From Acidimicrobiales bacterium (GTDB lineage Bacteria; Actinomycetota; Acidimicrobiia; Acidimicrobiales; Bin134), in the NCBI GenBank assembly GCA_963663255.1, contig OY760141.1, forward strand, positions 1,823,584 through 1,887,583: DNA of 64,000 nt, read 5' to 3'. Positions 38,479-49,572 of the stretch are shown here, one piece after another. A program made the position numbers and the translations under genes. Each line of letters begins with the position of its first letter. Position 1 is the first letter of the stretch. The notes below the pieces were generated by a model. That model was not told the origin of the DNA, searched no databases, and saw only the letters and a program-made list of their open reading frames with translations.

Positions 38479-39876
38479 GTGCGTTTAGCCCCTGAGAACC
38501 TCACAGCCACAAGGGAACACCCCTTCCTCAATGACAGGCTGGGCCGAGGCCCACAGATACAAGCCTTGTGCGGGCTAATAGAGAGCGTGTCCGACCATGC
38601 TGTCGTTTCACTCGACGGCCCCTGGGGATCAGGGAAGACCGCTTTCATGACCATGTGCTCGGCCGAGCTGCGCCGCAGGAAGGTCCGAGTAGTCGATTTC
38701 AACGCCTGGCAGCAGAGCCACACAAAAAGCCCAATAGTAGACTTGGTGTCCGCCATTGCCTATGAGCAGGGAGGCTCGTGGACCGACGACATCAAAAAGA
38801 CCCTCTTGGACGTGAGCCTGCATCTGGCCAAGATCGGCTCCCGGGGCCTCATCGACCGAGACGCAATCGAACCCAACAATCAGAAGGGCTTCGACACCTA
38901 GCGTGACGCCAACACCAAAGTGGAGGAGTTTAAGGCCGCGCTGCGACAAGCCTGCTCCCACGCAAACGACCTCGTGGCCGGACGGCTGGTGGTGCTCGTC
39001 GACGAACTGGACCGATGCCGGCCCGCCCACGCCCTGGACCTCATCGAGACAGTCCGCCACCTCTTCGCAGTTGAAGGCGTCGTGGTTGTACTTGCCGTCA
39101 ACCGAGAAGAGCTGTGCCATTCGATCCAAAGCCTGTATGGAGCGGATTTCGACGCAGACCGCTACCTTCGCCGCTTCGCGGACCTTGCCTGCATCCTTCC
39201 CCCCCCGACATCCGACCAAATGGCGGCATTCACGACCGAACTCCTCTCAGGACTTGGCCTCGATGGCCGTTTCTTCGCCGGGAGAACGCCCGACTACAGC
39301 CCGTCGATCCTGCAAAAGATCACAGACGGGTCACGCCATAACCTGCGAGACCTCCAACAAGCGCTCCACCTAGCGGCCGTGTCGCTAGATTCCCCCAAGA
39401 TCGCGGAAGGCTCCCCAACCGACAACTGGGGATCAAAGCAAAAGGCGGCGGCGCTGATCGTCCTCCGAACGCTCAGCCCCGCCGCCTACCGGAACCTGGC
39501 AAACGGGGACAGCGCCTTCGCGGCGGTCGCCGCCATGAACCGGGCACTCACCGATGACCCAGCCACTCTCGCGGACACCTCCACATGGGACACAGCCCAC
39601 GAGAAGCTCGAAGCCTCACTCCTCGCAGAAACCCTCAATGCGCTGATTGCGGGCCCACCAGGCCTCCGCGGGGAGGACTCCGCCCAAGACGCCTTTCACA
39701 AACGGTACGCAGGCGCCTTCGCCGCGGCATTCGACGGGACCGCCGCCGCCCTACAAGCCGCCGAATTCCGGGCCAAAGGAATCACATACGCAACTGGCAA
39801 GCGTCTCACAAACCAGACGTCGTCGACGATGCGGATAGACCAGCTCGTCGGGATAATAGACCTCACCGCCTACTAG
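38479..39876 (+). pseudogene. KAP family P-loop NTPase interrupted by one in-frame TAG (38899-38901)
   Basis: Walker A LDGPWGSGKT and FNAW in the 5' half; Walker B VVLVDELDRCRP and YLRRF in the 3' half; both halves in the same frame. Confidence 0.85.
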
Positions 39877-40014: not shown

Positions 40015-40240
40015 ACTAGAACGAGATCGGACAAGAGGGACGAGGATGACCTGCTGCCCGATCCCCATAGCTTTACATAACATGTATTCTCAACGTTTAG
40101 GGAAGGAATCGAGTTATCTAAAAACATTGAAAATAGCTGTTGATATCTGAAAGAACAGTGAATATAGTGCTCTGACTGGCTTGAGTCAGAGCTATCGGCC
40201 CCACCGGCCCTTGTCGAGAAGCAATGAACGGAAGGGTTGT

Positions 40241-41326
40241 ATGGGTGCCGTCCACCGAATGTGGCTGGCCGCAACGTTGCTGTCGACGGCCTGCGCGAGC
40301 AACGGCGCCGATCTGACCGCGGCCTCTTCGCCAACTGCTTTGTCGGCGCCTGCCGCTGCGGTGCTGCTGACCGACCCAGGCCAGAAAGAGGCCCTCGAAT
40401 CGAAGGCCGCTCCATCTCGGGCGGTGCCGCCCGCCACCGGACTCGCCACAACCCCCGGGCCGGCGAAGCCATTGCCGGGAGCCACGGCCACCCCGACACC
40501 GGGGTTGCCCACGAATTGGACACTCAGCCCCCGCGCCAGTAGCGCCAGCTCTATGGATCCGGTAGTCAACCACTCACCCGGCCATTCCCATCCCGACCCT
40601 GCTGCCGATGAGTGGAGTTCGGAAGCTACGTGGCGGGACATTCCTCCTGGTGCCGACGATGAGGGCGGGACTAGCGATGGTGAATACCAGCTGCCGCCAC
40701 CGTCGCTGGAGAGCGCCTGGACAGAGGACTCTACCGGTGAGTACCAGGTGCTTCGGCCTGCTACCCGGGAGGAATTGGGCGGATTTCGCGTGGTCTCACC
40801 CCCCGCGGAGGCCTTGGGCTGGATGACCCGGTGCGTGAATCATCATGCAGACCCGCCGGCTTCCTCGCCATGGCCCCAGGATGTGCGCGCGTCGCAGGCC
40901 GTTTTGGGCTGCACCACCAGCGCAGGCTTGATGGAGCAGGCCATACAGCGTTACGGCGCAGAACGTGAGTGCGTGCAGCAGGCGTATTCCGACGACTACA
41001 GCGTGGTCGGCGGACAGGGGAACTCTTGGACGCAGTGCCCGACCATTGGAAATCCGACCCCGCTTGACGGGCGGCCATTCGCGGAAAAATGCCGCGACGT
41101 TGTGTTCCGGGGCCTGGTGCTCAAGGGGCAACCCCGGCTGGAGAGGATCGCCGCCGATACCTGTGAGCTATTCGAAGCCGATCTTGTTGCGCACCTCGCA
41201 GTTCCGGGAACAACCGAATTGTGTGCCGAGCACTGGGTGTTGAACGCCGTGCTCGATGCCGAGGCGCCGGGGGCGGTGCCCGGACTGCACCAGCACGTGG
41301 GGGTGAACACCAGTGGGACGTGCTGA
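40241..41326 (+). CDS. Putative lipoprotein with Pro/Thr-rich linker and Cys-rich C-terminal domain
   Basis: MWLAATLLSTA-C lipobox-like signal; GGAAGGG SD; several Cys in the distal half. Confidence 0.6.
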   Translation: MGAVHRMWLAATLLSTACASNGADLTAASSPTALSAPAAAVLLTDPGQKEALESKAAPSRAVPPATGLATTPGPAKPLPGATATPTPGLPTNWTLSPRASSASSMDPVVNHSPGHSHPDPAADEWSSEATWRDIPPGADDEGGTSDGEYQLPPPSLESAWTEDSTGEYQVLRPATREELGGFRVVSPPAEALGWMTRCVNHHADPPASSPWPQDVRASQAVLGCTTSAGLMEQAIQRYGAERECVQQAYSDDYSVVGGQGNSWTQCPTIGNPTPLDGRPFAEKCRDVVFRGLVLKGQPRLERIAADTCELFEADLVAHLAVPGTTELCAEHWVLNAVLDAEAPGAVPGLHQHVGVNTSGTC

Positions 41327-41330
41327 CCGC

Positions 41331-42824
41331 ATGCGGGTGGCCGCCGCCGTTGTGACCGCCGCTCTGCTCGCGCTGCTGATAAGCCCTGCGCCGGGAGCCG
41401 CCGATCTAAAGCTTGATCTCGGCTGGCCCTCTTGCGATGCCGCGTCGCCGGGGCAGTGGTGCTGGACCAGCCGCACCTCGCTGGCCCATGAATACGCCCA
41501 CACCAACCAATTTGTCGAGTACGCCGGCACACCCTTCGGAAAACAGTCGACCGGGAATTCCCGTTCCACGTCCTGTGTCGTTCACAGTACGAGCGAGGGG
41601 TGCGGTCACAGCCCGCCCGCAGCCGACACCCCTGGGGCCTGGTACGAGTTTGGGGGCCACTGGTGGACGCCGCAGACGTACTACTGGTCTTACACCGGGC
41701 ATTGGAAGCCCGTGCCTCCCCCGCCGACGGCTACTCCGACGCCCCCACCAACGCCGAGTCCTACAGCGACGCCCACGCCTCGGCCCACGGTGATCCCTAC
41801 AGCGACGCCCACGCCTCGGCCCACGGTGACCCCTACCCCGACGCCCACGCCTCGGCCCACGGTGACCCCTACCCCGACGCCCACGCCTCGGCCCACGGTG
41901 ACCCCTACCCCGACGGCGACGCCTCGGCCCACGGTGACCCCTACCCCGACGGCTACTGCGGTTCCGACGGCGACGCCTCGGCCCACGGTGACCCCTACCC
42001 CGACGGCTACGCCTCGGCCCACGGCCACTCCGACTGCTACTGCGGTTCCGACGGCCACGCCTCGGCCCACTCCGACGGCTACTGCGACTCCCCCTCCCCC
42101 GCCGCCTCCGCCGCCTCCCCCACCTCCGCCGCCTCCATGGAAGACCTGCACGTCGGCGTGGACCGACCAGACCCGGATGTCGCTGCTGCGGCGGGTGCGG
42201 TGGGAGTCGATTGTTCCCTACGCCAGTGGTTTCACCGGACATCACCATCCAGAGGTACCGGGCGGGCGGCTGTTTCTGACCGCGGCGTCAAGGGCGGGCC
42301 ACACGGTGCGCCATTGGACAGCTCTGCAACCGGGGTCAACGCTCGATGTGCTCGACGCCCCGGTGAACGGATGCCTTTGGACGGCCACTGGTGTCGGGGT
42401 GTCGCTACGAGAGCTGCTTCCCTACGAGCCTGCTGATCTGGCCAAGCTGAAGGCTCCGGGCGACGTGGCTGCGAAGGACACGGCCATAAAGGCAGCCGCG
42501 CTGTGGGATCTGCTGAATGCGCAGCGCAGGCAATGGTTCCAAGCCGCCTTTGCCCGCAACGATCCTTCCATCGTCTGGTGCCCGCCCGGTGACTTGCCCC
42601 CTTGGACCGTGCCGGAAGACGGTGTGTTGTCTTTGTCCCCCGCCTGGGAAGCGGCCCACGGGCACTGTCGGTGGTCGATCCCCCGTCGGGGCTTCTGGGT
42701 GTGGAGCCTGCAAGTTCAGTACACCTCTGAGCAGGGCGATCACCACACCCTGGTCTTGGCCGATGATCTGTCCTGGTTCCGCGAGCCGACCGAGTATCTG
42801 GGCCAACGGATCACAATATGGTGA
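41331..42824 (+). CDS. Secreted protein with PT-rich stalk (putative adhesin or minor pilus protein)
   Basis: Signal peptide MRVAAAVVTAALLALLISPAPGAA; Trp/Cys-rich domains flank the PTPRPTVT repeats. Confidence 0.7.
   Translation: MRVAAAVVTAALLALLISPAPGAADLKLDLGWPSCDAASPGQWCWTSRTSLAHEYAHTNQFVEYAGTPFGKQSTGNSRSTSCVVHSTSEGCGHSPPAADTPGAWYEFGGHWWTPQTYYWSYTGHWKPVPPPPTATPTPPPTPSPTATPTPRPTVIPTATPTPRPTVTPTPTPTPRPTVTPTPTPTPRPTVTPTPTATPRPTVTPTPTATAVPTATPRPTVTPTPTATPRPTATPTATAVPTATPRPTPTATATPPPPPPPPPPPPPPPPWKTCTSAWTDQTRMSLLRRVRWESIVPYASGFTGHHHPEVPGGRLFLTAASRAGHTVRHWTALQPGSTLDVLDAPVNGCLWTATGVGVSLRELLPYEPADLAKLKAPGDVAAKDTAIKAAALWDLLNAQRRQWFQAAFARNDPSIVWCPPGDLPPWTVPEDGVLSLSPAWEAAHGHCRWSIPRRGFWVWSLQVQYTSEQGDHHTLVLADDLSWFREPTEYLGQRITIW
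41716..42137 (+). repeat. Coding Pro/Thr tandem repeats (30-nt core) and poly-Pro
   Basis: gcctcggcccacggtgacccctaccccgac repeated; encodes (TPTPTPRPTV)n then a poly-Pro run. Confidence 0.92.
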
Positions 42825-43468
42825 ACCGTCCCAATAGCGAGCAGTGGTCGCCCACGTCTTGGCCAGTTGCCTTCCGCTGGCGCCTATTGGCAACGGCGGT
42901 CGTCCTGGTGGCCACCGTCGCGGCGATCGCGGCCCTGTCCCGAGACGGCGATGACGTCGCGGAGGTCTCGGTGGTGGTGGCAGCCCAGCGGTGGGCGGAG
43001 GGCCATCCACCGGGCGATCACGCCACGGTCAACATGCCGGCCGACCTGGCCGCGCTGTTCATCCAGCCATCAGAGCTGGCCGAAGCCGTCGCAGCCGTCG
43101 ATGTGCCCGAGAGCGCGCTGGTCTCACCCAAGATGCTGCGCCCCCGACGAAGCGGTGACGACAACCGCAAAACCGCGCTGATGAGGTTCATGGTGAGCGC
43201 TGAGATGTGGGCCGGTTCCGGTCCGGCTGCCGGAGACCGGGCCGTGTTCTCTCCGTACTCTGGTGGATGCGCAGCGGCCCTGGCCACCTTGTTGGCGGTG
43301 GGCGACGAAGGCGCCGCCACCAGCGTGACCGTAGAGGCCACCCCTGAGCTGGCCGCCGTGCTGGCTGATGGACAGTGGTGGATATGGGAGTCGCCTCCCG
43401 GGGGCTGGCCTCGGTGCCCAAGCGATGGCCCGCCCGAGGCTGGTGGCAACAATGAGGCGACGAGCTGA
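42818..43468 (+). CDS. CpaB/RcpC-like pilus assembly protein (SAF-like)
   Basis: Single N-terminal TM, VVVAAQ..G, AAVDVPESALVSPKML; lies just before the ATPase. Confidence 0.6.
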   Translation: MVNRPNSEQWSPTSWPVAFRWRLLATAVVLVATVAAIAALSRDGDDVAEVSVVVAAQRWAEGHPPGDHATVNMPADLAALFIQPSELAEAVAAVDVPESALVSPKMLRPRRSGDDNRKTALMRFMVSAEMWAGSGPAAGDRAVFSPYSGGCAAALATLLAVGDEGAATSVTVEATPELAAVLADGQWWIWESPPGGWPRCPSDGPPEAGGNNEATS

Positions 43469-45096
43469 TGCTGTTGACCATTAGAGACCGATGGCTCGAC
43501 AGCGAGGCCGTGGAGCGGGTGATGGACGGGGTGCTGGAGGGCATTGCCAGCACCGCCCCCGGGGTGGTTCTGGCCACCTCCCCAACCGAGGTTGATCAGG
43601 CATCGGCTGCTGGTCATCCCACCGTGCTCTTCATGCGAGACGACGAGCCGGAACTCCGCTTGGAATCGGCGGTGGCCTCAGCCGCCGCGGTGTTGTGGAT
43701 CACTGCCGCCGACAGCACCGACGTCCGCTCCCAGCTTCGGCTGGACACCGGGGCCCGTCGTTCCACGCCGATTGTGTCGGTGGTTGTGTCCGACGATCAG
43801 CCCGACACCGATCGGTTCCGCCGCCAGCGGGTCTTCACGCTCTGGGTGTCCACCGAGCCGGCCCGGAGTCACCGCCGCCGGCTGCACCGGCTCGGGCGTC
43901 GGATGGCATGGACTGCTGTCGCCCCCCGCCGGCTCGATCCGCTCGACCGCGAGACCCACCTGTGGTCGGCCTCGCACGCCGCCCAGACCCGGCTGGCCGA
44001 TCTGCTGGAAGAAACCGGAGTCGAGGAGTTCCAAATCCGGGGCGGCGAGTGCATGATCGTCCACCGTGCCGAGGGACAGCGCGAGCGCCGGAACTCCCCA
44101 TTTGCGTCTAATGACGAGTTGATCGAGACAGCCCGGCACTTGGCCAGCTTCTCCGGAGGGCAGCCCCAGCGCTTCGACATGCTCGACAGCCGGCTGGACA
44201 TCCGCCTCGGCGACCGGTGGCGGCTGCACGCCGAAGCGTTTATGTGCCATCCCCCCACCATGGTGCTTCGGTCGAATATGGCCGGCAAGGCCACGTTGGA
44301 CGAGCTCAGCGTTGCCGAACCACCGCTTCAGAAGATATTGGCAGGGGCGGTTTCCGGGCCGATCCGGGCCAACATCGTGGTTGCCGCGGCCATGGGTGGC
44401 GGCAAGACCACGCTGTGCCAGGCCCTGCTGGCCACCGTCGACGCCTCGGAGAGGATCGACACCATAGAGGACACTCCCGAGCTCCGCTTGGCCCAATACG
44501 GCATCCATCCCAACAGCTTTGAGCGTCTCACACGGGATGCCAACAACGACGGTGTGGGAAAGGTCACCATGAGCGACCACATACGCGACGCCAAGCGGGC
44601 CAACTCGTCCAAGCTTGTGATCGGCGAGACGAGGGGCGAAGGCACCCTCGCGCTGCTCGACGCCATGAGCAGCGGGCTCAACGGCTGCCTGGTCACGCTG
44701 CACAGCCAGCCGGGTCCAGGCGTGCTGGCCAAACTGGTGTCGTACGCGTGCGGTGAGGGGGCCGACGCTCGGTTCGCCCGCCAGCAGATCGCCATCGCCG
44801 TCCATTTGCTGGTGTGGATGGGCCGAAACGAGATCGGAGAGCGGGTTGTGTCCGATGTCACCCAAATCGTCAGCTACGACGATCGACAAGACGTCATCGA
44901 CACCCGGTGCCTATGGGCCCTTCGCCCCGGCCAGCGGTGGTCGGCTCCGGTGGGCCGGCCCCACGGCCAAATCGAGCGTCTTTACCAATCAGTGGGGATA
45001 GACCTGCGACCGGCCGACGGCTCGACACCGAGAACCGACAGAATGCCGGCTGCGTCTTCGTTGTCGGTGGCGGCTTCCTCGGTGACAAGCCAATGA
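43468..45096 (+). CDS. tadA: TadA/CpaF family pilus ATPase with long N-terminal extension
   Basis: AAMGGGKTT, ERIDTIEDTPEL, LVIGETRGEG, AMSSG..G..VTLHS. Confidence 0.85.
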   Translation: MLLTIRDRWLDSEAVERVMDGVLEGIASTAPGVVLATSPTEVDQASAAGHPTVLFMRDDEPELRLESAVASAAAVLWITAADSTDVRSQLRLDTGARRSTPIVSVVVSDDQPDTDRFRRQRVFTLWVSTEPARSHRRRLHRLGRRMAWTAVAPRRLDPLDRETHLWSASHAAQTRLADLLEETGVEEFQIRGGECMIVHRAEGQRERRNSPFASNDELIETARHLASFSGGQPQRFDMLDSRLDIRLGDRWRLHAEAFMCHPPTMVLRSNMAGKATLDELSVAEPPLQKILAGAVSGPIRANIVVAAAMGGGKTTLCQALLATVDASERIDTIEDTPELRLAQYGIHPNSFERLTRDANNDGVGKVTMSDHIRDAKRANSSKLVIGETRGEGTLALLDAMSSGLNGCLVTLHSQPGPGVLAKLVSYACGEGADARFARQQIAIAVHLLVWMGRNEIGERVVSDVTQIVSYDDRQDVIDTRCLWALRPGQRWSAPVGRPHGQIERLYQSVGIDLRPADGSTPRTDRMPAASSLSVAASSVTSQ

Positions 45097-45908
45097 CTGC
45101 GCAAGCCGCGGCGGCTATGGCCGCAGGGTTCGCCTTGATGGTTATGGTCTGGTGGCCGACGTCGGCGGGAACCCCCTCGGCGCTCCTCATGGGGAGCCTC
45201 TTGCTGGTCCAGCGGCGCTCACTGCGAGCCGGGCCGCTGCTGGCCGCGGCACTGGTTGCTCTCGGATTCATCGCCGGGATGGTTCTGGTGGGGGCCACCA
45301 CCGGCGTGGCCGTCATGGTGCTGACCGGCGTGGGCATTTGGGCAATCGCGGTTCAGATCAGGTCGCGCCGTAGTCTGCGGGAAGCCGACGAGCTAGCCCA
45401 GCTGACCAGCGGACTGGCCAACCAGGCGTTGGTGGCTCCCACCGTAGTGGTAGCCGTCCGCCAAGCAGCGCCGCTGATTCCCGGCCGGGTGGGTGCAGCT
45501 GCACAGCTCATGGCCGCCGAGTGCGAGACCGGCGGCCTGGTCGAGGCGGCCAACCGCTTTTCCACCACCATCCAACGCCCTATTGCCGAGATGCTGGCCA
45601 CCGTGCTGGCCGAGGCCTTTCGGGGAGGCTCGCAGTGGGTGGGTCTGGCTGGCGTATTGGCCGACGAGGCTATGGAGGCGGCCGAGACTGCTCGCCACTT
45701 CCACCGTTATGTGGCGGCCCTCATGCCTCAAATTGCGGTCACCGTGGTGATGGCGGTCGGGATGCTGGCCATCAGCGGCTTCGCCGCCAAAGACGTGGGT
45801 CGCTGGCTTACCTCATCGGTTGGGCAGCAGTTCTTGTTGCTCCTGGCGCTGCTGACGGCCGCCATCTGTGCCCGGGTGCTGGCCCCAGCCTGGCGGGCGG
45901 GCCGATGA
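45093..45908 (+). CDS. TadB-like membrane protein
   Basis: TM-rich, T2SSF-like central region, WLTSSVGQ C-terminal TadB pattern; ATGA-coupled to tadA. Confidence 0.65.
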   Translation: MTAQAAAAMAAGFALMVMVWWPTSAGTPSALLMGSLLLVQRRSLRAGPLLAAALVALGFIAGMVLVGATTGVAVMVLTGVGIWAIAVQIRSRRSLREADELAQLTSGLANQALVAPTVVVAVRQAAPLIPGRVGAAAQLMAAECETGGLVEAANRFSTTIQRPIAEMLATVLAEAFRGGSQWVGLAGVLADEAMEAAETARHFHRYVAALMPQIAVTVVMAVGMLAISGFAAKDVGRWLTSSVGQQFLLLLALLTAAICARVLAPAWRAGR

Positions 45909-46618
45909 TCTTCGTCGCCGGTGCCTCGGGAGTGGCCGCGGCGATGGTCTTGCTGCTGACCCCGCCCAGCACCACCAGCCAGGCCGCAATTCAGGCTGCG
46001 GCCATTGGTTGGCCTCCTAACCACATATCGATGGCCAGCTGGACTCTGTCGGCTGCCGGTGCTGTGGTTGGCGGGCTCGTCGGACTATCGGCATTCGGCT
46101 GGGCCGGAGGCATGACTCTGGCGGTGTTGGCCGGAACGTGGCTGCCTCGCCTGGTGCCCGCGGCCATCCGGTCGCTGGCCGCCGCGGGCTACCGCCGAGA
46201 ACGGGACCAAAAGGTGCTCGAGTGGATGCGCAAGCTGCGGCTGCTGACTTCGGCGGGACAGCCCATCAACGCCGCCGCGGTCAACGCGGCTTTGACGGTA
46301 TCGGGTCGGGCTTTCACCGTGGCCCAAGGGGCCATTGGGGCTGCTTTGGAGGCCGGACGGGATCCACTGCCCGCGGTCACCGCGGCCATCGCCGGCTCCC
46401 CCGCCGAGCCGCTGCTGGCCTCGGTGGTGGCCGCCGAGCGGGCCGGAGCGGCGTCCTCAGACCTATTGGACAAGTCCCTGTCCCGATCAGTTCGGACTTT
46501 GGAGTCCGAGCGACGCCTGGAGATCGACCAGCTCAGCCGGGCCATCGGAACCACGGTCACCTTGGTGGCCGCCGTCGCTGGTCTCACCGTCATGGCCGCC
46601 GTGATCTTCGTGCTCTGA
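45905..46618 (+). CDS. TadC-like membrane protein
   Basis: LRLLTSAGQPINAA, AAERAGA; ATGA-coupled. Confidence 0.65.
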   Translation: MIFVAGASGVAAAMVLLLTPPSTTSQAAIQAAAIGWPPNHISMASWTLSAAGAVVGGLVGLSAFGWAGGMTLAVLAGTWLPRLVPAAIRSLAAAGYRRERDQKVLEWMRKLRLLTSAGQPINAAAVNAALTVSGRAFTVAQGAIGAALEAGRDPLPAVTAAIAGSPAEPLLASVVAAERAGAASSDLLDKSLSRSVRTLESERRLEIDQLSRAIGTTVTLVAAVAGLTVMAAVIFVL

Positions 46619-46656
46619 GGCGCGCCGGATGCCCTGTACCAAAGGAGAAATCACCC

Positions 46657-46860
46657 ATGCAATCAGCCATCGTCCAGATGATCTTGATCGTGGTCGCCAT
46701 TGCCGCCGCCGCCATCGTGGCCATCATCGTCTATGCCCAACTCAGCTCGAATGCTCCCGCCGACGGGGACAACATCGACTTGGACCGGATTACCACCGAG
46801 ACACTGTGCGATGCGGTAGGTGGAACTTGGACTGCTGGCAATACCCCGCCCTGCGCATAG
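46657..46860 (+). CDS. Flp-like major pilin candidate (67 aa)
   Basis: Strong AAGGAG SD; MQSAIVQMILIVVAIAAAAIVAIIVY hydrophobic helix then a short Cys-pair head; follows tadC. Confidence 0.65.
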   Translation: MQSAIVQMILIVVAIAAAAIVAIIVYAQLSSNAPADGDNIDLDRITTETLCDAVGGTWTAGNTPPCA

Positions 46861-46866
46861 CCAACC

Positions 46867-47265
46867 ATGGCCTCATCTCTGGTCGTCCTGCGCAGCGCGG
46901 TGCTGCTGATGTTCTTGTTGGCGGTGGTCACCGGGCTGTACGTGAGCCACGTCACCCGGTTGTCGGCCGACGCCGCTGCCCAGTCGGCCGCGATTGCCGC
47001 GGCCCAGGCTGCAACCGAGGTCGGATGGCAGTGCGATGTGCCGCCACCCGAGGCGTTGACCGCCGCGGCCCGAGCGGCCTTGGGCAAGATTGAGCACCTC
47101 GCGGTGCAGCCGGTGGCCGTGGACGTGTACGCCGACGCCTGCAACCTGATCGCCGCGGTCACCGCCGCTCCGCTCGACACCCGGGTGTCGGCGCTGCACA
47201 CCACCGCCACGGGCTGTCGATCGGCCACCAGCGCTGCAGCACTGAGCGTCCCCGGCTCCTGTTGA
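46867..47265 (+). CDS. TadE-like minor pilin
   Basis: N-terminal hydrophobic helix, AAAQSAAIAAA helix, Cys residues. Confidence 0.55.
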   Translation: MASSLVVLRSAVLLMFLLAVVTGLYVSHVTRLSADAAAQSAAIAAAQAATEVGWQCDVPPPEALTAAARAALGKIEHLAVQPVAVDVYADACNLIAAVTAAPLDTRVSALHTTATGCRSATSAAALSVPGSC

Positions 47266-47275
47266 CGGGATTCCC

Positions 47276-47695
47276 ATGAGCGACGCCATCGCGTTTCTGC
47301 TGATACTCCCCGCGCTGGTGCTCGGCATTGTGGTGCTCGACGCCGCCGGAACGCTGGGCACGGCCCGGTACCGAACAGCGGCCTTCACCGAGGCCGCTGC
47401 CGTCCATGCTGCCGACACCCTGGCTGAGGCCGACGGCACCACCGCGGAGCCGTCGGCTCGGGACCGGTGGGACGAGGTGATGGCCGCGGTGGAGCAGTCC
47501 GGCCTCGCCGCCACCGCCGGGGTCTGCAACCAAACCGACGCCTTGTTCGAGGTCAGCCTGGTTTCCCAGCCTCGCCCTTCCCGAAGCCCCGGCACGACAC
47601 CGTCGGTGGCGGCGGTGGTGAGCTGCCCGGTAGAGCTGGGTTTGCTACTCAAGACCGAACGAGTCATGGCCGTGGGCATCGAGCCAGTCGACTAG
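47276..47695 (+). CDS. TadE-like minor pilin
   Basis: AFLLILPALVLG, AAAVHAA, C..VSCPV, C-terminal EPVD typical of actinobacterial TadE. Confidence 0.65.
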   Translation: MSDAIAFLLILPALVLGIVVLDAAGTLGTARYRTAAFTEAAAVHAADTLAEADGTTAEPSARDRWDEVMAAVEQSGLAATAGVCNQTDALFEVSLVSQPRPSRSPGTTPSVAAVVSCPVELGLLLKTERVMAVGIEPVD

Positions 47696-47699
47696 GCCG

Positions 47700-48071
47700 A
47701 TGTACTCCGCCATTGTGCTCTTGTCGCTGGGCATGGCCGTGGCTGTGGCCAGCGGCTCGCTGGCCGACCACGGTGAACTGATCACCAGTCGCAACCTGGC
47801 CGTCAACCGGGCCGAGCGGGCCGCGGGAGCCTTTGTCGATGGTTGCGGGAGCCGGGGTTGCGACCCGGGCACGGTGAACACAACCCGCCTTGACGGCACC
47901 ATCCTGGCCGGTTGCGTCAGCCAAGCCGGGGGAAGTCCCGTGCTTCGAGTGGAGGCCCGCATCCCTTGGAGCCCACGGGTGTTCACTGGCCTAACCCCGG
48001 CCACTGGCACGGTGGCCATCGACCTGGGCGGTATGGGGGTTCCCGCAACCGCCGTATTGGCCCCATGCTGA
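47700..48071 (+). CDS. TadG/TadE-like minor pilin
   Basis: N-terminal hydrophobic helix, LADHG..AERAAGA, Cys pairs. Confidence 0.5.
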   Translation: MYSAIVLLSLGMAVAVASGSLADHGELITSRNLAVNRAERAAGAFVDGCGSRGCDPGTVNTTRLDGTILAGCVSQAGGSPVLRVEARIPWSPRVFTGLTPATGTVAIDLGGMGVPATAVLAPC

Positions 48072-48126
48072 GGAAAGCCCACCAGCAGTTCTGCCATTGA
48101 ACGCCAATGCGGTAGCGTGACCGCCG

Positions 48127-49572
48127 GTGTCTCGCAGGATTGAGATTGAGCTGACCAGCCAGCGGCCCGACGGGTCTTGGACATGGAGGGCCGCGGGCGC
48201 ACGAGAGCCGAAGGGCGAGATGGCCGGCGATCTGATCGCCTTTGCGGCCAAAGCGGGCGACGAGCTGACCGTCGAGGCCGAGTTCCACATGGATGGTATC
48301 GAGATCATCGAGGCCTTCGAACCCAAGACCAAGCGTCCCCTGCCGGAGACTCTGGAGGTCTTGGGCTCTGGCCGAGATCAACCGCTGGTGACCACCCAGT
48401 TGGTGGCCAACCGCAAGGGCCGGGACCGAGACCGGGATTCCGGCGACCGAAGGGGACGTCAGGACCGACGCGGCCGGGGCGACCGAAGGGATCGTGACCG
48501 CCGGGAAACCCGCCGCGACGATGACCGTCCCAAGGCCAAGCGCCTACGCCCCGCACGCACCCACCGCCAGGCGTTGATCGACAGCTTGCCTGAGGAGCAA
48601 AAGCCGGTGGCTGAGAAGATGATGAGAGACGGCGTCGCCTCGGTGGAACAAGCCCTGCGGGATCAGCGCAAGAAAGCCCGTGACGCCGCCCAAGCCAAGA
48701 AGAAAGCGGCCAAGGAAGCTTCTGAGGCCGAGGCCAAAACGGAGGAGGCTCCTGAATCTGAGGCCGAGGCCAAGCCCGAGGAGACTCCTGAATCTGAGGC
48801 CGAGGCCAAAACGGAGGAGGCTCCTGAATCTGAGGCCGAGGCCAAGCCCGAGGAGGCTCCTGAGGCCGAGGCCAAAACGGAGGAGGCTCCTGAATCTGAG
48901 GCCGAGGCCAAGACCAAATCGCCAAAGCAGGGTGCGAAAGAAAAGAAGTCTGGTTCCGAGCCTGCTGATGAATTTCTAGCCGCAGCAGGCAAGCTGCTCC
49001 CTCGGATGCGATCTGCGGAGTGGCGAGATCGGGTTGAGGCCGCGCTGGCCGAAATTGACGAAGTTGATCTACGCGATTTGCGGTCGGTGGTGGTCGCCTC
49101 TGAGGACGGGGCAACCGACGAAGAGACCAAGGCTATGGCCGAAGATCTGCGCAACAAGCTCACCGAGCGAGTCGACCGAGAGCACGCCGAATGGCTGGCC
49201 GAGGTGGCGGCCACGCTGGCCGATGGTCGAATGGTGCGGGCCTTGAGGCTCAGCTCACGGCCCCCGAAAGCCGGAGTGCCCCTTCCCCAAGACATGGTCA
49301 ACCGATTGACAGAGGCGGCCAACGCCGCCTTGACCAGCGACACGCCGTCCAAGCGTTGGATCACCGTATTGGGTGCGGTGGCGTTCTCGCCGGTGCGCCG
49401 AACGGTTCAGCCCCAGGGTGTCCCGGAGAATCCTGACAAAGAACTATTGGCTGAGGTCACAAAGCTGTCTGAGCGGGTTCCCCATATCGCCGCCCTGTTC
49501 GGCGTGGAACCCACGCCGCCGCCGAGACGCAGCCGCCGCGGCGCCGGTGTTCAACCCGCTAGCCGGAGATAA
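48127..49572 (+). CDS. Conserved hypothetical protein with charged low-complexity linkers
   Basis: 481 aa; ordered N-terminus ([24 protein letters not shown]) and C-terminus ([13 protein letters not shown]). Confidence 0.75.
48721..48912 (+). repeat. Coding 30/36-nt acidic tandem repeats ([12 protein letters not shown])
   Basis: tctgaggccgaggccaaaacggaggaggctcctgaa and variants, about 5 copies. Confidence 0.92.

Follow-up and report, generated by a model that had tools for sequence, protein, structure and literature searches.

The window analysed here is a stretch of 64,000 nucleotides from an Acidimicrobiales bacterium (GenBank assembly GCA_963663255.1, contig OY760141.1, positions 1,823,584 to 1,887,583). 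It carries a chromosomal chain of about ten genes on the + strand (window positions 40181-48071, from the open reading frames and the sequence), which we interpret as the genes of a strongly diverged, Tad-like (type IVc-like) filament machine found in sponge-associated Acidimicrobiales. Behind the genes for a TadA-like ATPase and for TadB-like and TadC-like platform proteins stand four small genes, here called p1 to p4, whose products lack the leader peptide of prepilins, and these leaderless starts are conserved in 28 loci (p1, p2 and p4) or 29 loci (p3) from at least three Acidimicrobiales families. We consider it fairly probable that the cluster encodes a variant type IV filament of Tad-like kind, in which p1 as the major subunit and p2-p4 as the minor ones are produced already 'mature' and assembled without prepilin processing. 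To our knowledge, all described type IV pilins carry a leader peptide. Type IV filaments in general are regarded as sharing a conserved core made up of pilin, extension ATPase, platform and prepilin peptidase. In the literature searched, with subscription journals and supplements outside the search, we found no mention of leaderless pilins or of assembly independent of a prepilin peptidase.

Leaderless starts of the four small genes

The genes on which the argument turns, with the ribosome-binding site of p1, are the following:

43468..45096, + strand: TadA-like secretion ATPase of 542 aa, PF00437, with an N-terminal extension of about 170 aa
45093..45908, + strand: TadB-like platform protein; its ATG overlaps the tadA stop, and position and size fit TadB
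45905..46618, + strand: TadC-like platform protein, PF00482 (T2SSF); its start overlaps the tadB stop
46644..46647, + strand: Shine-Dalgarno sequence GGAG, 9 nt before the p1 ATG
46657..46860, + strand: p1, 67 aa, MQSAIVQMIL; leaderless, Flp-sized, candidate major pilin with a C-terminal Cys...Cys loop
46867..47265, + strand: p2, 132 aa, MASSLVVLRS; leaderless, minor-pilin-like
47276..47695, + strand: p3, 139 aa, MSDAIAFLLI; leaderless, TadE/G-like, minor-pilin-like
47700..48071, + strand: p4, 123 aa, MYSAIVLLSL; leaderless, minor-pilin-like

A preliminary description of this DNA, made from the sequence alone, had stated that the four genes after tadC open directly at the hydrophobic helix, and the open reading frames and the sequence bear this out. 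The gaps it gave between p1 and p2, p2 and p3, and p3 and p4 (6, 10 and 4 nt) are exact, as is the strong Shine-Dalgarno sequence in the 38-nt spacer between tadC and p1; GGAG or AGGAG precedes p1 in most loci. It was equally right that p1-p4 have no basic leader or other basic N-terminal stretch, no Gly cleavage site, no Glu at +5 and no EY motif, and that the cluster holds no prepilin peptidase, as none of the 11 proteins of the region matches Peptidase_A24.

The starts were counted in the window, in 18 orthologous and 4-5 paralogous loci of the same genus, and in five loci of other families, taking as an alternative start any in-frame ATG, GTG or TTG between the previous stop and the conserved start:

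p1 start, 28 loci: ATG in 25 and GTG in 3, at a fixed position; no in-frame alternative start in 16/28
p2 start, 28 loci: ATG in 21, GTG in 6 and TTG in 1, at a fixed position; no in-frame alternative start in 27/28
p3 start, 29 loci: ATG in 24 and GTG in 5, at a fixed position; no in-frame alternative start in 19/29
p4 start, 28 loci: ATG in 15, GTG in 11 and TTG in 2, at a fixed position; no in-frame alternative start in 18/28

Because the start is conserved at the same codon in 28-29 homologous loci, the leaderless starts are neither a product of chance nor mis-called. The case is clearest for p2, where a stop lies at most 5 codons upstream of the start in 22 of the 28 loci, which leaves no room to encode a leader of any kind. 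One could still suppose that the leaderless look is an annotation artefact and that the true starts lie upstream, since some in-frame ATG, GTG or TTG is present there in 12/28 p1, 10/29 p3 and 10/28 p4 loci. The upstream frames that are open vary from 1 to 315 codons and their translations are not conserved, p2 has its nearby stop, ATG, GTG and TTG alternate at one fixed position, and the short forms recur in public gene calls, so that we regard this explanation as almost certainly wrong. In those calls, relatives of p1 measure 64-74 aa (among the 120 of 168 matches listed) and relatives of p3 mostly 130-141 aa. Of 16 proteins examined among those that a p3 profile finds in cluster representatives, 14 start with M-[DS]-[DE], one has 23 extra residues before the motif and one is 4 residues shorter. 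The judgement that hidden leaders are unlikely thus extends to orthologues, paralogues and distant homologues, which have no leaders reachable from upstream starts, and the loss of the leader, whose conservation the preliminary description had put up for checking, is conserved in 28-29 loci per gene.

The N-terminal segments are themselves under constraint. In p1, 19 of residues 1-28 are invariant across 22 sequences (an alignment that leaves out locus L050), some of them from paralogues with an overall identity of only about 60%, and a motif LCxAVGGTW...C is conserved. An N-terminal signature, M-x-[STDE]-[APS]-[IVL], is common to all four families. Ratios of nonsynonymous to synonymous substitution rates (dN/dS) lie between 0.055 and 0.73 in 15 of 16 ortholog or paralog pairs, the remaining pair being saturated, and p1-p4 are under purifying selection. 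Among the sequencing runs listed for positions 46600-48100, five from two studies are of DNA and none is of RNA.

Two paralogous clusters hold an extra p1-like gene between p1 and p2 (L054:4905-5150 and L057:5246-5540), with the sequence pattern MVEAIIELRF...LCDAAGGQW...C. It too has no leader (in L054 a stop precedes the start by 2 codons), and has Glu at positions 3 and 7.

Predicted architecture of p1-p4

AlphaFold2 (AF2) models were made for p2 and p3, the p3 alignment being enlarged with distant relatives. The p3 model (predicted local distance difference test, pLDDT, 92.3; predicted template modelling score, pTM, 0.81) has a helix at residues 2-51, a second helix at 65-79 and three strands, and the p2 model (pLDDT 83.9) has helices at 2-51 and 61-75 and likewise three strands. 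The architecture expected of a pilin, a long N-terminal helix that is hydrophobic in its first half and lies on a beta-sheet, is therefore predicted for p2 and p3 only. For these two the models do not give the folds unlike pilins that the preliminary description had named as grounds for refutation.

Both models were compared with 48,161 structure chains. Among the best 50 matches, type IV pilins or pseudopilins account for 10 with p3 and 11 with p2, including PilJ (4ixj; Z 6.3, root-mean-square deviation 2.2) and GspK (3ci0; Z 5.9), and further PilX, PilV, EpsI/J, XcpV/W, Thermus competence pilins, FimA and PilA4. This comparison of predicted models is consistent with a pilin fold, short of proof. 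Neighbours in the ESM Atlas, from a search with a protein language model, point the same way: 27 of the 30 named neighbours of p3 carry PF13400, a TadE/G-like family (top score 0.94, with 190/256 shared features), as do 22 of the 30 of p4 (top score 0.91, 165/256 shared features), which for p4 we take as a lead only. With the initiator Met of p3 placed at Gly-1, Pro12 of p3 aligns with Pro+11 of canonical TadE proteins from the same genome and from a Streptomyces plasmid, whose cleavage sites were deduced from the [DE]RG motif.

The C-terminal parts contain invariant or near-invariant Cys residues, two in p1, four in p2, two in p3 and four in p4. Such conserved pairs fit extracytoplasmic domains and suggest an N-in/C-out topology. 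By sequence, p2, p3 and p4 cannot be called paralogues of one another, as hhalign found no similarity among their profiles (probability at most 3%). Hidden Markov model (HMM) searches at E <= 1 gave no match of p2-p4 to PF07811 or PF13400, and for p1 only chance-level membrane families of Pfam, PF04964 (Flp/Fap) not being matched and its motif G↓xTAIEY (arrow, cleavage site) being absent. Profile searches of PDB sequences returned no match for p1 and 4 chance-level matches for p3 at E <= 10. A complex prediction for p2, p3 and p4, with p4 as the partner, had a score of 0.19 and a mark of 0.32, giving no verdict.

Several of the results weigh against a filament made of unprocessed pilins. The best Z scores of the structural comparison are only 7.4 and 7.0, and the pilins are mixed there with inositol-monophosphatase-like and aminopeptidase folds; with Foldseek, the p3 model had no match in the PDB at E <= 1e-3. 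Neither p1-p4 nor the TadB-like protein matches a Pfam or NCBIfam model, and in genome-wide searches PF07811 and TIGR03816 find nothing in the window cluster, the only PF07811 matches being three genes in the other two Tad loci of the genome. In all four proteins there is no basic residue before the helix that would fix an N-in topology, and no acidic residue at +5 that would pair with the N-terminal amine in the filament core. In addition, every carrier of the module among the genomes searched has a match to the A24 peptidase family, so that independence of the peptidase cannot be read from co-occurrence. Finally, the N-termini of p4 (...AVAVA↓SGS) and p1 (...IVYA↓Q) can also be read as Sec-type cleavage sites.

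This last point could mean that signal peptidase I removes the N-termini as Sec signal peptides and that p1-p4 are soluble secreted proteins and not pilins, as the small-x-small motifs follow a hydrophobic stretch in both p4 (AVAVA↓S) and p1 (VYA↓Q). Signal peptides, however, are usually the least conserved part of a protein, whereas p1 is best conserved in its N-terminal helix, even among the paralogues, as in pilins and unlike signal peptides. A positively charged n-region is missing, residues 2-51 of p2 and p3 are modelled as one continuous helix within the fold, and the genes stand behind those for TadA, TadB and TadC in every locus. We therefore judge a Sec origin of the N-termini extremely unlikely.

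Relation to canonical Tad systems and prepilin processing

The cluster resembles Tad/Flp systems (type IVc, such as the Aggregatibacter Tad and Caulobacter Cpa systems) as summarised in PMC10191384, in having a TadA-type ATPase and, probably, a platform split into single-domain TadB-like and TadC-like proteins. In both, one subunit is very small and precedes several larger ones of helix and sheet (Flp and TadE/F/G in Tad systems), a bitopic protein is encoded upstream at the CpaB position, and the genes are arranged in one operon. In contrast to Tad/Flp systems, the subunits have no class III leader, G↓xTAIEY motif or Glu+5, the subunits and TadB have no Pfam match, and the locus contains neither TadZ nor a peptidase; the ATPase has its N-terminal extension, and two large exported proteins head the operon.

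The similarity of the motor and platform proteins to known families is of uneven strength. The ATPase matches PF00437 with 57.7 bits (cut-off 24.9, E 1.1e-15). Its best NCBIfam model, and nearest curated family, is TIGR03819 ('TadA family conjugal transfer-associated ATPase', of an actinobacterial helicase/secretion neighbourhood; E 1.5e-40), of which it is not a member, since its 139.4 bits are far under the cut-off of 373.15. The TadC-like protein passes PF00482 marginally (26.6 bits, cut-off 25.2), and the TadB-like protein is 26% identical to the TadB of a canonical Tad locus of the same genome over 220 colinear aa (BLASTP, E 0.004).

That genome has two further Tad loci, both canonical, at about 819-823 kb and 880-886 kb. 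Like the window cluster they have the order ATPase-TadB-TadC-Flp-TadE, and their ATPases are 32-34% identical to the window ATPase in the core, but their Flp and TadE proteins carry basic leaders ending in [DE]RG and their TadE proteins match PF07811. The first locus has Flp ...DRG↓QATAEY and TadE ...DRG↓QAAVE, and in the second (C1:884989-886039) the residues at +5 of Flp and of its two TadE proteins are Thr, Thr and Gly instead of Glu. The organism thus uses leaders where they are needed, and its single A24 peptidase probably has clients outside the window cluster. The gene for this peptidase, the only PF01478 match in the 3.51-Mb genome (C1:2150083-2150427), lies about 278 kb from the cluster, adjoining aro genes, and its product probably serves the two canonical loci.

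These loci also qualify what had been said of Glu+5. Its loss is true of the homologues of p1-p4, where position 6, equivalent to +5, is V/T/S/A in p1, V/I/S/T/G in p2, A/S/G/T in p3 and V/L/I/T in p4, but it is not distinctive of the window cluster, as the leader-bearing pilins of the second canonical locus lack Glu+5 as well. According to PMC10191384, Glu5 pairs with the N-terminal amine, and tip subunits are without it.

The TadE/G-like pseudopilins of PF13400 ('Tad') and PF07811 ('TadE') offer a further comparison for the larger subunits. These are similar to the window proteins in size (120-140 aa) and in their hydrophobic N-terminal helix, which continues as an Ala-rich amphipathic segment, and share with p3 in particular the Pro at +11; unlike them, the window proteins have neither an HMM match nor a leader. 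According to PMC12075869, TadE/F/G are predicted to form tip complexes, and minor pilins are functional only after processing. In Table 1 of PMC10191384, each of the type IV filament systems has a peptidase.

The preliminary description also suggested that loss of the leader might go together with absence of an A24 peptidase. This we reject: A24 matches occur in 366 of 401 genomes of the order (eight of the genomes tallied are marked as unpublished, and no carrier is among these eight), and every carrier of the module that was searched is among them. Five genomes of one genus (G178, G225, G266, G378 and G409, family f12) have unusually weak A24 matches, with E from 2.9e-7 to 1.2e-3, where most genomes of the order have values of 1e-10 to 1e-18.

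The presence of an A24 match in all carrier genomes searched leaves room for another explanation, that a very short cryptic leader of 2-4 residues is removed by the A24 peptidase or another protease, and that processing is still needed. The pattern M-x-[ST]-[AP]-[IV] shared by p1, p2 and p4 could then be a recognition site. All 29 p3 sequences, however, have Asp or Glu at position 3, and a wide range of residues is seen at position 2. Prepilin peptidases are known to need a Gly and a basic residue, and neither is found at the N-termini of p1-p4, whereas the other two Tad loci of the genome have retained canonical [DE]RG sites. A cryptic leader seems to us very unlikely.

We return, then, to a filament assembled from unprocessed subunits. 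In such a machine the TadA-like ATPase would be the motor, with the TadB-like and TadC-like proteins as the platform. The strong Shine-Dalgarno sequence, the Flp size and the near-invariant helix of p1 suggest that it is the major subunit, and p2, p3 and p4 would probably be minor subunits like TadE/F/G, with a role in priming or capping the filament. The initiator Met would occupy the place of Gly-1 of canonical prepilins in all four, so that the subunits could enter the membrane in 'mature' form and be taken up by the platform without A24 cleavage. A processing-independent Tad variant was the reading already given in the preliminary description; the conserved leaderless starts and the predicted folds of p2 and p3 now support it, and from these we infer filament formation and independence of the peptidase.

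If this is correct, the cluster would encode the first natural type IV filament that does without a component from the set of four regarded as universal. Processing would then not be mechanistically required for extraction of subunits from the membrane or for their polymerisation. The system would also test the roles of the leader, in topology and timing, and of the salt bridge between Glu5 and the N-terminus, and could serve as a minimal system for reconstitution.

Distribution, upstream genes and neighbourhood

The genus itself supplied 18 orthologous loci and, as second copies, 5 paralogous ones, and other families of the order supplied 5 more. The gene order up216-tadA-tadB-tadC-p1-p2-p3-p4 is kept in all of these with the exception of L058, where tblastn found no p2 or p4. 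This locus, a second copy in genome G021, is the most divergent paralogous cluster (ATPase 50% identical), and a p1-like tblastn match lies upstream of its up216.

Full-length orthologues of the ATPase are present in all 36 same-genus genomes and in none of the 24 genomes of other families in the same draw, where only the core is matched, at about 30-35% identity. The p3 family was found in 21 genomes from 6 of 215 genera in the sample of 401 genomes of the order, and among 1.84 billion cluster representatives the p3 profile finds only 23 proteins at E <= 1e-3. By tblastn, eight loci from a scan of species-representative genomes carry the module, under the titles Ca. Poriferisodalaceae, Ca. 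Poriferisodalis, Acidimicrobiales or Acidimicrobiia; these may overlap the five loci of other families. In the three of the eight where the N-termini of the small genes were read (L069, L071 and L076), they are of the same leaderless type. The relatives are named as Ca. Poriferisocius sp., Acidimicrobiia, 'bacterium' metagenome-assembled genomes, Ca. Poriferisodalaceae and Ca. Poriferisodalis, and judged by these names the named carriers are sponge-associated Acidimicrobiales.

As the module was found only in lineages named as sponge symbionts, and in all 36 genomes of the genus, it may matter for the attachment of these uncultured symbionts to the host. We propose, tentatively, a distinct type IV filament subclass, so far confined to sponge-associated Acidimicrobiales, in which all subunits would be without a class III signal peptide, the salt bridge between Glu5 and the N-terminal amine would be missing, a TadA/B/C-like motor would work without a peptidase step, and the filament would probably attach the cells to the sponge.

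An origin of the module from conjugative plasmids was also considered and is not supported by searches of 72,556 plasmids with the ATPase, TadC and p3 as queries. The ATPase finds only generic CpaF/VirB11 cores at no more than 33% identity, with none of 3329 records covering 80% of the query, and TadC and p3 have no match. The one Streptomyces plasmid Tad-like locus examined has canonical leaders.

Upstream of tadA the chain contains three further genes:

40181..41326, + strand: u381, exported protein with a lipoprotein-like N-terminus; candidate first gene of the chain, on the basis of a 14-nt overlap with u503
41313..42824, + strand: u503, secreted protein; its N-terminus resembles a signal peptide, and a linker rich in Pro and Thr leads to a conserved C-terminal domain (residues 277-503)
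42818..43468, + strand: up216, bitopic membrane protein at the position of the CpaB/SAF proteins in Tad loci

None of the three matches a Pfam or NCBIfam model. The protein up216 is kept across orthologous, paralogous and distant loci; as it has no similarity to the SAF-domain protein of the Streptomyces plasmid, the label CpaB-like refers to its position only. The linker of u503 is about 130 aa long and ends in a poly-Pro run, and u503 overlaps up216 by 7 nt. Its C-terminal domain is encoded directly upstream of up216 in 18/18 orthologous loci, and a weak counterpart (25% identity) is found in 2 of 5 distant loci. Together, u381 and u503 may be a surface cargo or adhesin of the machine.

These two proteins are central to a further explanation, that of a Tad-derived machine without a long pilus, which would export or display u381 and u503 and in which p1-p4 would stay in the membrane as a short pseudopilus or as bitopic parts of the platform, the class to which TadG was long assigned. 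Both genes are chained to the operon by the 14-nt and 7-nt overlaps, and the position of the u503 domain is constant in the orthologous loci. The usual docking chemistry is missing without the leader and Glu+5, and Table 1 of PMC10191384 places TadG in the cytoplasmic-membrane sub-complex. On the other hand, a short pseudopilus would still be a type IV filament built of the same subunits, the Flp size and near-invariant N-terminal helix of p1 fit a polymerising subunit, and the set of one small and three larger helix-plus-sheet proteins matches the major and minor pilin sets of Tad systems as given in PMC12075869. On balance, we think a machine without a long pilus unlikely.

The surroundings of the module differ between lineages. 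A gene for a 481-aa protein with a charged, repeat-rich middle (48127-49572) lies directly downstream of p4; it is found downstream in orthologous loci and is absent from paralogous loci, and is therefore probably outside the module. In the other families (L059-L062, L069, L071 and L076, but not L066), a pyrR-like gene (VADRERRMTPPYGG...) follows the module, a different but also housekeeping neighbourhood. Further upstream in the window, at 38479-39876, two open reading frames, the first of which starts with a GSGKT motif, resemble a split P-loop NTPase and are unrelated to the pilus cluster.

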